This document shows positions 23,251 through 64,000 of a stretch of DNA of 64,000 nucleotides, in pieces (positions within the stretch are counted from its first letter, which is position 1; every line of letters begins with the position of its first letter). The notes under the pieces were generated by a model, which worked only from the letters and a program-made list of their open reading frames with translations, ran no database searches and had not been told where the DNA came from. Source of the DNA: Lachnospiraceae bacterium (lineage in GTDB: Bacteria > Bacillota > Clostridia > Lachnospirales > Lachnospiraceae); assembly GCA_024685635.1 (NCBI GenBank), contig JAIKVP010000040.1, forward strand, positions 67 through 64,066, written 5' to 3'. Made by a program: the position numbers and the translations under genes.

Positions 23251-24669
23251 TTACATATGTGGTTGATCATTAGTTGGTTTAAGAACAAGATTCTTATTAA
23301 TATTAAGGTTAGGATCAGGCTTCTTCATATTCTTCTGAATATCGTTAGCCTTTCTCAAAGCATTGCCGTCCTTCATCTCTGACTGCTTGGTCATATCCTG
23401 AATATCCTGTCTTGTTAATGCCGCTCCACTCTTTTGCTTTTCAAGACCCTTATTAACCATTTCCTTAGCAAGATCAGTGTTTAGTGTGTCAGTAATATCA
23501 TCTTCAGTAGGTGTGGTGGATTTATCAAGGCGACCCATAGCAGAAGTAAATGACTCACCTGGCTTAATTGAAAAATCTCCACTCTTCTCAAGGCTAGTAA
23601 TTCTATTCTCATAGAAAATAGTCTTTGCAACTGATGTTTCCATAGAATCTTTTAGCTCAGGACCATCCTTTTTACCAACCATCTTCTCTCTATTAAGCTC
23701 CTCTTCCATAGAACCATTTGCTAGAGCTTTAGCCATTTCATCCTTCTTTTGGTCAATCTGATGCTTGAACATCTCAGCTCTCATTTCCTGAATGCTATTC
23801 TGTGCTTCCTCAACAGCTCTAATACGCATTCTCTCATAGTCAGAATTAGGACTTAAACGATACTCTTCTGTTCCAATTGTAACATCAATTCCCTCTTCAT
23901 CCTTCTCTACAGTTCTATTGTGCATCTTATACTGTAAATACTCTTTAGATGATCTATACGCCTTAAGAGAAAGCTTATCATACTTTTCCATCTCTTCAGC
24001 AGTAAGTTTTGTTCTTCCCTTAATCTCCTTCATATATTCATCTAATGCATTAAGGTCATTGCAAAGCTGTCTATAATGCTTAGATGTCCTAGCACCATGC
24101 TTGCCGCCACTAGTCATCTCTCTAGTTAAATGCTTAAGTCTATTAATCTTATCATACTGAGAATCGACAATTTCACCACAATCCTTGCCATCCTCTGCCT
24201 TATATCCCTTCTCCTCTGCAGTCTTCTCGTCCTTTTTCTCTTCTTTAATCTTAACGCCCTTCTTCTTCTTGATTTTAGGATTCCTTAGGCGCTCATTCTC
24301 ATTTTGAAGCTCCTGATTCTGTCTTGCAAGACTGGCATTCTGCATCTCAAGCTTCTCTTTATCTTTTCTTAATCTTTCAAGCTCTGCAGTGTTATCAGCC
24401 TTGTTAGCCTCACCATTAGCGTTTATCTGATTATTATTCTTTTGCTCAATCTCATTATTAATATTGAGATTCTCGTCAAGATTATTGTTAATGTCATTGT
24501 TAATGTCATTGTTAACATTATTATTATCTATATCAACAGCATTGTCATTTTTTAGGTTTAAAGAGTTTGCCCTTTTCCTGCCTTTTTTCTCCTGGTCCTT
24601 TAATACTAAATCATCTAGGATACTGTTCTTGATATTCTCATTCTCCTTGATATTCTCATTCTCCTTCAT
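23251..24669 (-). CDS. Effector-like hypothetical protein with shared helical domain X and an N-rich low-complexity N-terminus
   Basis: 472 aa; TSKHYRQL...AYRSSKEYLQYK...SDYERMRIRAVEEA; no signal peptide seen. Confidence 0.85.
   Translation of the reverse strand: MKENENIKENENIKNSILDDLVLKDQEKKGRKRANSLNLKNDNAVDIDNNNVNNDINNDINNNLDENLNINNEIEQKNNNQINANGEANKADNTAELERLRKDKEKLEMQNASLARQNQELQNENERLRNPKIKKKKGVKIKEEKKDEKTAEEKGYKAEDGKDCGEIVDSQYDKINRLKHLTREMTSGGKHGARTSKHYRQLCNDLNALDEYMKEIKGRTKLTAEEMEKYDKLSLKAYRSSKEYLQYKMHNRTVEKDEEGIDVTIGTEEYRLSPNSDYERMRIRAVEEAQNSIQEMRAEMFKHQIDQKKDEMAKALANGSMEEELNREKMVGKKDGPELKDSMETSVAKTIFYENRITSLEKSGDFSIKPGESFTSAMGRLDKSTTPTEDDITDTLNTDLAKEMVNKGLEKQKSGAALTRQDIQDMTKQSEMKDGNALRKANDIQKNMKKPDPNLNINKNLVLKPTNDQPHM
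24629..24664. repeat. 18-bp tandem repeat encoding (K)ENENIK x2; a 12-bp tandem also lies at 24485-24508
   Basis: TTGATATTCTCATTCTCC x2; TTGTTAATGTCA x2. Confidence 0.9.
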
Positions 24670-24740
24670 ATTCTAATTCCTCCTTAATTAAAACCTGTCA
24701 GAAGACTCACTAACTGACATAACTTTGCTTCGTTAGATAT

Positions 24741-24776
24741 ACTATAACAAACAAAGTGCAACAAAAGCGTAACAAA
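24741..24776 (-). promoter_or_regulatory. T4SS-regulon promoter copy 1 (11-bp-period direct repeat plus -10)
   Basis: Minus strand TTTGTTACGC TTTTGTTGCA CTTTGTTTGT TATAGT. Confidence 0.8.
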
Positions 24777-61781: not shown

Positions 61782-61819
61782 AACTATGTCCTCCTTTTTT
61801 GTCTATAATCTATAAGTCT

Positions 61820-64000
61820 TTAGAATAATTTAACTCCACTATTAATAGTATTATTATAAACCCTTCTTTTAGCAATTTCAGTCTGATCAATACTTTGGTG
61901 ATTCTTTTCGATTACTGCTGCAATCTTAGGCATAATCCTCTCATCCTTGGTCAAGGATTCAAGCAGCTCTGAAACATTTTTTTTCAAAAGACCTGAAGAT
62001 TTTACAAATTCCTTAACACTCTTTTCTATATCTTTGACATTCTTTTCTTCTGCAAGACTGTCATTTAAGGAATTATTTCTGCAGTTATCTCTCCAGTATA
62101 ATTCATCACACCTATACTCATCATAAGCATCTCTTTTAGCCTTTACTCCTTCATTTCTTGCTTTAGCAACTACTTCATCTCTTTCATTTTGTGAAAGATT
62201 CTCAAGATTATTCATATTGATTGCGTTATTCTCCATCTTTTCATTATATGCTTTTTTGACTTTTGCCATACCATTTTTATATTTAGTAGTTTTATCAATA
62301 GCCTTATTATAAAACTCTCTTCCTTCATCTAACACCTTTTGAATAATGATATCAGAAACCAATTCTGCCTTGGCTTTGTCATCAAGCTCTACATTATTTC
62401 CAGCCTCAATCTCCTTTTTTATGGTGTTAAGTTTATTAAAAGCATCAACAGAATTCTGGTATATTCTAGACTGAACTTTAAGACTCTTAACATGTCTTAT
62501 TCCATCCTCCTGCAACCCACCTATGGTTATAGCAAGCTTCTTTAACTCTGGGTCTCTCTCTAGCATATTAACCATTCTAGATCCCATCTCAGCAAGAATA
62601 ACTATGTCATCATCAGCCTTTTTCATAAGTCTTGCCTGGGCTACTACAAATCTAATTCCATACCACAAGGTGCAGGCCAAGGTTTCTTTTTGACCATTCT
62701 GGTAATCCTTTAGTGCATTTACAGCAGTTTCTCTTCCCGCATTGATTACATCTTTATATAGCTTTGCCTTATTAGCATCTTTAGCTATTTCAGTAGTGTA
62801 ATCCTTGCCTGTTAATAGAGCTTTATCTCCTCCCTTGTTAGCTAGTCTGCCATCTTTAACAGTTGCCTCTGGTGATAAAGCTCCCGCATATGCTACAGCA
62901 ATAAAATCCCCTTCAGAAATCTCTTCAGCAGTATCAGAAGGCCCTACTCTGTTAAATCGGTCGAGAATAACAGGAAAATCCTTCATAAACGCTTCATCAT
63001 CACCATAGCTTGATTGGATATCAGGCCTTCTTGTGTAATAAGCCGCAATTTTTGCTAGTTTCTGATGATAGCTAATACCCATCTTGGTACTATCCTTATA
63101 AGATGCTTCCTGTCTATTATTTTCAATTTCAAGGCCTTTAATACGGTATTCAGAATACTGGTTTATACATTTATTCCTGCTAATGCCAGTTGCATTACCT
63201 GGCCCTACACCTCTAGCGTTATTGATGCTATCCATAACCTGTGTCTTAAACTCATTTGCCGGCATAACCGAATACAAAACTGTAACGGCAGCGTCAAATC
63301 GTATTCTTCCAAATTCTCTTTGTCTAACCGTCTTTTTATCCGATATGTAATTCTTACACTTATTAATCAGTTCTGTCCTCAAATCCATAATACCATCGGT
63401 GTCATTAGAGGCCATCTTATACAAGTATACTTTTATTGCCTTAAGCATTTCCTCATAATTATTGCTGTTAGACTTAGTGTGAAATAGACCACTTCCAACG
63501 CCTGTATCCTCTAAGGTTTTAACTATTCCTCTTAAGAATGTTGGATCAGTTCTACCTACAGCATTATTATTATAGCCAATGAATTCAGGTTCATTCAGCA
63601 ACTGTATAGGAGCCCCGTTAGTTAAAACACTATTTATATCATAAAATGTTTTTACTACATTAGCAGCCTTATCTTTGATGACATCTTTAGCTACTTTATT
63701 GCCGAATTCAATATATCTCTTTTCTTCGTCATTTAGTTTATTTGGTTCTTTATTAAACTTTGGTGCCTTTAATTCAACTGCATTAAAGATTATTTCACCT
63801 TTATTATAGCATTCTTTATCATCTAGACTTAAAGAACCCTTAAAGGTATTATAAACAGTATCTCCATATGTCATCCCAAGTTTGTTATCATTCCTCAAAG
63901 TATTTACCAAATATGCAGCCATATTACGGTTAGTATCATGGAAGGTTACATCCTCAGGTTTTTTTACTTTATCTAATGTTACTACTTCTCCGTCATCTAA
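61820..64000 (-). CDS. Effector-like protein with domains X and Y, 5'-truncated by the window edge
   Basis: Frame is open from 64000 (LDDGEVVTLDKVKKPEDVTFHDTNRN) into the listed 700-aa ORF, so ATG 63922 is probably not the start. Confidence 0.85.
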   Translation of the reverse strand, partial: LDDGEVVTLDKVKKPEDVTFHDTNRNMAAYLVNTLRNDNKLGMTYGDTVYNTFKGSLSLDDKECYNKGEIIFNAVELKAPKFNKEPNKLNDEEKRYIEFGNKVAKDVIKDKAANVVKTFYDINSVLTNGAPIQLLNEPEFIGYNNNAVGRTDPTFLRGIVKTLEDTGVGSGLFHTKSNSNNYEEMLKAIKVYLYKMASNDTDGIMDLRTELINKCKNYISDKKTVRQREFGRIRFDAAVTVLYSVMPANEFKTQVMDSINNARGVGPGNATGISRNKCINQYSEYRIKGLEIENNRQEASYKDSTKMGISYHQKLAKIAAYYTRRPDIQSSYGDDEAFMKDFPVILDRFNRVGPSDTAEEISEGDFIAVAYAGALSPEATVKDGRLANKGGDKALLTGKDYTTEIAKDANKAKLYKDVINAGRETAVNALKDYQNGQKETLACTLWYGIRFVVAQARLMKKADDDIVILAEMGSRMVNMLERDPELKKLAITIGGLQEDGIRHVKSLKVQSRIYQNSVDAFNKLNTIKKEIEAGNNVELDDKAKAELVSDIIIQKVLDEGREFYNKAIDKTTKYKNGMAKVKKAYNEKMENNAINMNNLENLSQNERDEVVAKARNEGVKAKRDAYDEYRCDELYWRDNCRNNSLNDSLAEEKNVKDIEKSVKEFVKSSGLLKKNVSELLESLTKDERIMPKIAAVIEKNHQSIDQTEIAKRRVYNNTINSGVKLF

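Follow-up and report, generated by a model that had tools for sequence, protein, structure and literature searches.

Effectors of the Bartonella VirB/VirD4 type IV secretion system (T4SS), the Beps, carry a BID domain that together with a positively charged tail forms their translocation signal, and basic C-terminal tails are a known feature of VirB/D4 T4SS substrates. We analysed a 64,000-nucleotide stretch of a Lachnospiraceae draft genome of 2.77 Mb and ~38% G+C (the window; G000:C194:67-64066) that encodes a Gram-positive-type T4SS and four proteins, P0001 to P0004, for which an initial annotation had proposed a shared helical domain, here called X, comparable to BID. X marks a large, fast-evolving class of signal-less, otherwise unannotated proteins that includes all four window proteins. 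We infer that this X-bearing class is the likely cargo of the T4SS in the window, which is chromosomal and relaxase-less, and that X is a candidate component of the signal by which the cargo would be recognized.

The comparison with BID held for arrangement and failed for kinship. In both cases one helical-bundle domain sits on otherwise different proteins linked to one T4SS, can be internal, can occur in several copies per protein and is paired with a positively charged C-terminal tail, and in both the argument rests on a coupling protein that recognizes its substrates. There is no sequence or fold relation between X and BID; the analogy is one of function only. Unlike the Beps, the X proteins belong to monoderm Clostridia with a minimal T4SS resembling those of Mollicutes integrative and conjugative elements (ICEs), carry an additional conserved N-terminus and number ~35 per genome. 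The X class also resembles the effectors of Legionella Dot/Icm in being a large, dispersed, fast-evolving and mostly unannotated repertoire that includes lipid-kinase-like enzymes, but Dot/Icm is a type IVB system of a Gram-negative host that uses short C-terminal peptide signals and adaptors. To our knowledge, no common folded domain runs across the Dot/Icm effectors.

A folded domain can dock onto a coupling protein: the XVIPCD of the bacteria-killing T4SS of Xanthomonadales binds the all-alpha domain of VirD4 (PMC8740702). Like X, the XVIPCD is a ~120-residue module with several short motifs, is attached to diverse effector heads and is limited to genomes with a particular VirD4/T4SS clade. 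However, it is strictly C-terminal with a glutamine-rich tail, whereas X commonly lies inside the protein and is accompanied by lysine-rich tails. X genes further differ from those of the Xanthomonadales effectors (X-Tfe) in standing back to back, with little room for small immunity genes, and in their Gram-positive host. We rejected membership of X in either family because a sequence search of the PDB and Foldseek searches with two structural models of X gave no specific relative. For BID, this comprised no Pfam or NCBIfam family, no PDB sequence match and no Bep entry in the Foldseek top lists; for the XVIPCD, no similarity was detected and both position and tail differ.

Among Gram-positive bacteria, the Streptococcus suis 89K T4SS, which secretes SspA-1, is the only reported effector T4SS, and a December 2025 review describes dedicated effector-injecting Gram-positive T4SSs as a long-standing open question (PMC12857230, section 22). 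The 89K system and the window system are both of Gram-positive type (VirB4, VirB6 and VirD4) and are both proposed to export protein rather than DNA. The 89K system has one reported substrate, which is released to the milieu, and no shared recognition domain has been described for it; by contrast, the window locus is relaxase-less and chromosomal, and its dozens of candidate substrates share not only a domain and a tail but also an N-terminus and a promoter. We found no description of the X domain or of the system in Pfam, NCBIfam, the PDB or the literature searched.

All window genes discussed here lie on the minus strand. X is clearest in the edge protein P0004 (61820-64000 in the window; the open reading frame (ORF) runs off the window and encodes 905 amino acids on the full contig), in which it occupies residues 163-270 (63191-63514; E values of 1e-32 to 1e-42 by jackhmmer and hidden Markov model (HMM)). 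A jackhmmer search with P0004 residues 140-280 over all ORFs of the genome converged on seven domains in six ORFs, with the successive motifs NSxEYxxML, NYIxGKxxVR and EFGRxRFD. This seven-sequence profile, subfamily X1, matched 425 clusters at E ≤ 1e-3 among 1.84 billion representative proteins, the named members being Lachnospiraceae and Eubacterium metagenome-assembled genomes (MAGs), and an HMM of 163 X1 domains scored P0004 at E 1e-32. Ranking the genome's ORFs of at least 200 amino acids against X1 gave a second tier of large, uncharacterized proteins whose alignments start at the S..Y motif. Seeds from this tier define the subfamilies X2 (~16 ORFs), X3 (~6) and X4 (2), which are linked in profile–profile comparisons at 96.5% (E 8e-10) for X1 with X2, 72.6% (E 3e-5) for X3 with either X1 or X2, and ~30% for X4 with the rest. 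The consensus in the initial annotation, S..Y..M / Y...K / G..R..A, proved to be the true consensus of a real domain superfamily, and the segments of all four proteins sit where it had placed them.

For P0001, P0002 and P0003, simple comparisons would be compatible with a chance similarity of lysine-rich helical or coiled-coil sequence. Pairwise BLAST among the four proteins found nothing at the claimed X sites and only a second module, Y, shared by P0003 and P0004. Searches with jackhmmer from the P0001, P0002 or P0003 segments against their own genome returned the query itself, the X1-only HMM rebuilt from 163 domains left all three unscored, and searches for homologous proteins returned the query only or no match. 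A whole-genome hhalign ranking of single sequences placed the three in the noise (ranks 22-120), yet their best matches fell at the claimed sites.

Deeper profiles, built with orthologs and paralogs from genomes with the same T4SS, gave a different result. For P0001 (472 amino acids; 23251-24669), adding relatives from genomes G004, G007 (54%) and G233 (34%) raised the match to X3 from 45% to 76.5% (E 2e-5), and for P0002 (816 amino acids; 50659-53109) the addition of four homologs raised the match to X2 from 78% to 88.5%. A scan of species-representative genomes yielded 79 loci and 57 domains of the P0002 type; almost all come from Hungate isolates or from MAGs of the ruminant gut. The 57-sequence P0002-family profile matched X1 at 93.9% (E 1.6e-7), X3 at 96.2% (E 2e-9), X2 at 86.9% and the P0001 profile at 97.1% (E 7.6e-11), and an HMM of this family matched P0001 residues 171-324 (23698-24159; also found by hhalign) with E 1.3e-6 among the genome's ORFs. 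Scores climbed with profile depth, from 35.7 to 41.2 for P0002 against X2 and from 26.3 through 31.7 to 45.5 for P0002 against X1, as homology predicts, which argues for true homology of P0001 and P0002. Judged by these profiles, homology of X is secure for P0004, P0002 and P0001.

The giant protein P0003 (2885 amino acids; 53124-61781) is a harder case. Its central region (residues ~1313-1425; 57507-57845) is a degenerate, borderline X-like region whose own sequence gave no significant match (best 28.5%, E 6e-4), aligned with X1 over motif 3 only and was not rescued by a merged superfamily profile. Motif 3 (SSRMGKTRYEAA) is intact. A homolog of P0003 in G007 (contig C13) aligns without a break over the central region (BLAST E 2e-40), keeps HRxGF.H.D, Y..AK and PSSRMGxTRYEAA, and gives a match to the superfamily HMM at the corresponding position (i-E 1.2e-3, Z=5000). 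Directly after the X-like region follows module Y (56565-57350; 98.9%, E 3e-17 in hhalign against the X1+Y family), for which BLAST aligns P0003 1428-1747 with P0004 284-575 (E ~1e-6); hhalign also supports the P0004 copy (62276-63151). Because the homolog is matched and module Y follows as it does in X1 proteins, we consider the central copy of P0003 probably real. The proposal that all four proteins share the domain therefore stands securely for three and, with a borderline match, probably for the fourth. Weaker copies had also been placed in both repeats of P0003, at residues ~473-568 (60078-60365) and ~2325-2420 (54522-54809); a joint two-repeat profile matched the superfamily profile at 66.8% (E 5e-5), and we treat these copies as possible. 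Module Y carries the motifs DFxAIA ... GRxxA ... RDPEL and also follows X in ~50 X1 proteins elsewhere.

We obtained AlphaFold models from an alignment of X1 and X2 (20 sequences) and from an independent alignment of the P0002 family (53 sequences). The X1 model (mean predicted local distance difference test score, pLDDT, 85.7; predicted template modelling score, pTM, 0.81) has five helices (14-26, 41-58, 65-81, 90-106 and 109-124), as does the P0002-family model (pLDDT 96, pTM 0.89; 7-26, 35-66, 82-109, 117-138 and 140-171). The two models agree on motif placement: the second helix starts with motif 1, the third ends with Y-x3-K and the fourth starts with the conserved Arg; the residues concerned are S40/Y43, Y79/K83 and G92/R95 in the X1 model, and SS..Y at 32-37, Y102/K106 and R122 in the P0002 model. 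Numbered by the motif-bearing helices of the bundle core, S-x-x-Y starts helix 1, Y-x-x-x-K ends helix 2 and G/x-x-x-R-x-x-x-A starts helix 3, and this topology implies that the conserved motif residues should meet at one pole. The models depict X as a new up-and-down helical bundle of ~110-170 residues, and they and hhalign indicate that P0002 carries an elongated version of the X1 bundle near its C-terminus (residues 592-758; 50836-51336). Foldseek with either model found no PDB match below E 0.02; the top 50 were generic four-helix bundles, and the lists for both models include generic up-down bundles such as pectin-methylesterase inhibitors. A PDB sequence search with X found nothing, and no family in Pfam or NCBIfam matches it.

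These models bear directly on whether the likeness is spurious. Because two confident bundles place the motifs at the same helix ends, a generic coiled coil, which the initial annotation had named among the results that would undo its proposal, is ruled out. Deep profiles, the independent HMM match and the AlphaFold evidence together refute chance similarity for P0001, P0002 and P0004, and the shared N-terminus, tail and promoter described below are independent features that also speak against it. What is left of this explanation, which we hold very improbable overall, concerns the P0003 copies only.

The X superfamily takes up a substantial part of the genome. Subfamily searches alone identified at least 26 ORFs, and with later additions (C73, C63, C105 and C115_16453) the class reaches ~34-36 ORFs totalling 36,329 amino acids, or 3.9% of the genome. 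No Sec-type N-termini were seen by eye among the class proteins inspected, and Pfam searches of 53 + 20 X proteins gave almost no matches. Effector-like content comprises a phosphatidylinositol 3-/4-kinase (PI3/PI4-kinase)-like domain and, in single family members, Ntox11 and the Membrane Localization Domain (MLD). The Ntox11 match (5.5e-21) lies in one X1-family protein and the MLD match (8.9e-4) in another, neither of them in the window.

The kinase-like domain forms the head of P0002. Its Pfam PF00454 score of 28.1 bits (E 2.4e-6) exceeds the gathering cut-off of 27.1, and the sequences GNIDRHPGN and GIDNDCSFG, corresponding to the catalytic DRHxxN and the downstream DxD/IDN, are present and invariant in homologs; on this sequence evidence we assign the head as a PI3/PI4-kinase-like domain. 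Cultured carriers of such kinase+X genes are Lachnospiraceae bacterium NC2004 (L063, JHXB01000002.1), YSB2008 and NE2001, and Ruminococcaceae bacterium FB2012. Relatives of the P0002 type are encoded in 164 stretches of species-representative genomes. P0002-type kinase+X genes stand in tandem, in two or three adjacent copies, in several rumen MAGs (L062, L086, L093, L095 and others), and the kinase region alone has weaker matches in Prevotella and Bacteroidaceae contigs.

The T4SS to which we link this class occupies ~24.8-50 kb of the window. It encodes a VirD4 coupling protein (41819-43843; Pfam T4SS-DNA_transf 3e-54, with TraG-D_C and TrwB_AAD_bind), which we used as the marker of the T4SS clade that co-occurs with X, a VirB4-like ATPase of 1390 amino acids (34505-38677; Pfam TraG P-loop 2.4e-16) and a VirB6-like channel protein of the Mollicutes-ICE type (38763-40784; NCBIfam NF045848 8.6e-32 and NF045889 2.3e-21). 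Surface or pilin genes in the block comprise a weak pilin-like match and a 1713-amino-acid PLAT-repeat protein; regulatory genes comprise a histidine kinase with a response regulator (48982-49818) and a SpoIIE phosphatase with an anti-sigma-type kinase. No window ORF scanned matched a relaxase family, although a novel relaxase could hide among the unannotated ORFs. With VirD4, VirB4-like and VirB6-like proteins present and no relaxase found among the scanned ORFs, the locus fits a non-conjugative Gram-positive (Mollicutes-ICE-like) T4SS. We rejected the identification of the locus as an ICE because the scanned ORFs gave no relaxase and because the integrase-bearing element at 0.4-10.7 kb is separate, beyond housekeeping genes.

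X and this T4SS occur together. In a sample of one genome per genus from 400 genera of the family, 11 genomes fell into the VirD4 clade (≥61% identity). X1 was matched in six genomes and X2 in five, all of them in the clade, and P0002-type X (P2X) in six, of which four are in the clade. Taken as a union, the X families were matched in 7 of the 11 clade genomes vs 2 of the 389 others, both weakly (Fisher p 3.8e-11, a value that overstates independence because the genomes are related), so the confinement to this VirD4 clade envisaged in the initial annotation is nearly complete in this sample. Of 40 relatives, two, G004 and G007, carry X1, each in 8-9 dispersed copies; they are also the only ones with a VirD4 ortholog at 93-94% identity and, within the genus, the only genomes with both. 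Gene order across the T4SS locus, from P0001 to a GNAT gene, is conserved in these two genomes; P0001 reaches 54% identity there against 94% for VirD4, a sign of fast divergence. More widely, VirD4 orthologs (61-94% identity) were found only in X-bearing or related genomes. X genes often adjoin VirD4 (G334 C131, G129 C18, G224 C27 and G179 C1), and kinase+X genes lie ≤6 kb from VirD4 orthologs of 64-71% identity on contigs labelled Oscillospiraceae and Ruminococcaceae. Three VirD4 orthologs have one in-frame stop each (G224:C27:24086-26080, G232:C8:22888-24882 and G035:C1:124495-126474), which could reflect a pseudogene, a start-site artefact or a sequencing error.

Shared ancestry can explain such co-occurrence among related genomes, and the place of P0001 in the T4SS locus is fixed and syntenic in three genomes, as that of a machine or accessory part would be. 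Both points fit an explanation in which X proteins are not cargo at all. They might instead assist the T4SS from inside the cell or attached to its surface as members of its regulon, for example as scaffolds, adhesins or regulators, or form an expanded selfish family co-inherited with the island. However, ~35 very different proteins per genome, of up to 2,900 amino acids and with enzyme-like heads and fast divergence, fit cargo better. X carriers represent seven genera of one family, with relatives in contigs labelled Oscillospiraceae and Erysipelotrichaceae, a spread that argues for transfer with the system, and the basic tails of X proteins are a feature known from T4SS substrates. We therefore regard a non-cargo role as very unlikely.

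Class proteins share features outside X. The N-terminal pattern MKE.[DE] begins 12 of 24 N-complete X proteins vs 5 of 1598 other ORFs (p 2e-20), and a further start, MP, is found in 6 of the 24 vs 35 of the 1598. Among 145 X1 representatives, MP opens 65 (45%) and MKE.[DE] 18, and MP is also found in 46 of 86 N-complete kinase-family ORFs (53%) vs 33 of 1172 neighbouring ORFs. In the window, P0001 starts with MKENE (24655-24669), P0002 with MKETD (53095-53109) and P0003 with MPN (61773-61781). Conserved N-termini of this kind, found also in about 20 other ORFs of G000, could serve as a second signal or reflect how the proteins are translated or processed. At the other end, the last 20 residues of X-class proteins have a mean net charge of +3.2 vs -0.14 for the background (p 3e-11); the tails are lysine-rich, as in P0003 (53124-53183) and P0002 (50659-50718), and commonly end in [PG]x[ML]xK.

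A promoter ties these genes to the T4SS. The direct repeat TTGTTGCAC-TT-TTGTTGCAC, followed by a -10 box, precedes the operon of the pilin-like gene and T4SS (47021-47037), the operon of the PLAT-repeat protein (34122-34138) and P0001 (24748-24775). Scanned as TTGTTRCRC (the TTGTTGCAC direct repeat) with 11-bp spacing, the motif has 4 sites in the window vs 0.09 expected by chance, and 34 sites genome-wide vs 3 for a reversed control. At least 11 of these sites immediately precede genes of the X or MKE class (C109 (twice), C115, C134, C202, C317, C105, C20, C21, C173 and P0001). The response regulator of the locus probably binds the direct repeat; if so, its two-component system would activate the T4SS operons together with the cargo genes by way of a single promoter. 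Further sites (C54, C247:6100 and 9910, C177, C232 and others) precede genes that may be cargo. The response regulator itself begins with MKEID, which fits the class pattern and is probably a coincidence.

This regulon and the distribution connect a fast-evolving, largely unannotated class with a Gram-positive T4SS that lacks a relaxase, and the X-bearing proteins are most simply read as its cargo. We propose that VirD4 would select them by a two-part signal, X plus the lysine-rich C-terminal tail, as BID plus tail does in Bartonella, with extra or internal X copies representing duplicates that may have been put to other uses. We estimate a probability of about 0.5 that X acts, jointly with the tail, as a translocation signal in T4SS cargo.

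Several observations weigh against such a role. X does not behave like a simple C-terminal signal: it often lies inside the protein, followed by 100-470 residues, and is sometimes duplicated, and among the class members surveyed it never lies in the first fifth of a protein. The basic tail is weak in the multi-genome kinase set (+1.1 vs +0.5, p 0.016), and the tail and the conserved N-terminus could themselves be the signal in place of X. Four of the 11 VirD4-clade genomes in the sample have no X match. Outside the clade, the two weak P2X-type matches (E ~1e-7) lie in long ORFs of G011 (C180:2875-3189), a genome 85% complete in which no VirD4 was found, and of G092 (C8:96939-97358), which has only a distant VirD4; these are either exceptions to the co-occurrence or false positives. 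Finally, co-occurrence and co-regulation fit equally well with X acting in the target cell.

This last possibility amounts to a different account of X, in which the proteins are cargo but X is a post-delivery module, for example for membrane, lipid or partner binding through its Tyr/Lys/Arg pole, and recognition rests on the lysine-rich tail, the MKExD/E or MP N-terminus, or both. The variable, often internal and multiple placement of X would suit such a module: an X no more than 80 residues from the C-terminus is seen in only 41 of 150 X1 proteins, whereas in the kinase family X stays C-terminal in 63 of 91 ORFs, which points the other way. Tail charge and N-terminal motif extend at least as widely as X does, and the conserved residues of X, basic or aromatic, are predicted at adjoining helix ends. 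Large toxins have four-helix-bundle localization domains, and one family member has a weak MLD match, apparently outside X. However, a post-delivery module would be expected in a subset of effectors only, whereas X-like domains are present on nearly every class protein with unrelated heads, and the fold searches gave no specific likeness to any known lipid-binding bundle. We consider this account rather unlikely.

A wider picture may be sketched, which we advance tentatively and hold less probable than its alternatives combined. Rumen Clostridia may carry a dedicated effector-translocating Gram-positive T4SS that delivers dozens of proteins into neighbouring cells; three elements together would mark the cargo for recognition, namely the N-terminus (MP or MKExD/E), the X bundle and the lysine-rich C-terminal tail, and a single direct-repeat promoter under two-component control would drive the set. 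The carriers in question are Lachnospiraceae, with relatives in contigs labelled Oscillospiraceae, Ruminococcaceae and Erysipelotrichaceae. Rumen ciliates or fungi are possible targets, since the heads include PI-kinase-like ones and immunity genes seem to be absent. The present analysis offers the question of Gram-positive effector T4SSs a testable case, a relaxase-less T4SS with ~35 candidate substrates per genome, for which four independent bioinformatic handles are available: profiles of X, the motif at the N-terminus, the basic tail and the shared promoter motif. It also brings annotation to ~4% of a genome that was previously dark and to a rumen-wide family of PI-kinase-like proteins, and may indicate an unrecognized interaction of rumen bacteria with eukaryotic or bacterial neighbours.

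At its other end, the window contains a small integrated element (383-10756) that is unrelated to the T4SS locus. It encodes a PcfJ-like protein, a DUF7666 protein, a rolling-circle Rep (ORF2/G2P), a cell-wall hydrolase and a tyrosine integrase, and genes for MatE, WhiA, MurB, alpha-galactosidase, PPK2 and other housekeeping functions stand between it and the T4SS.

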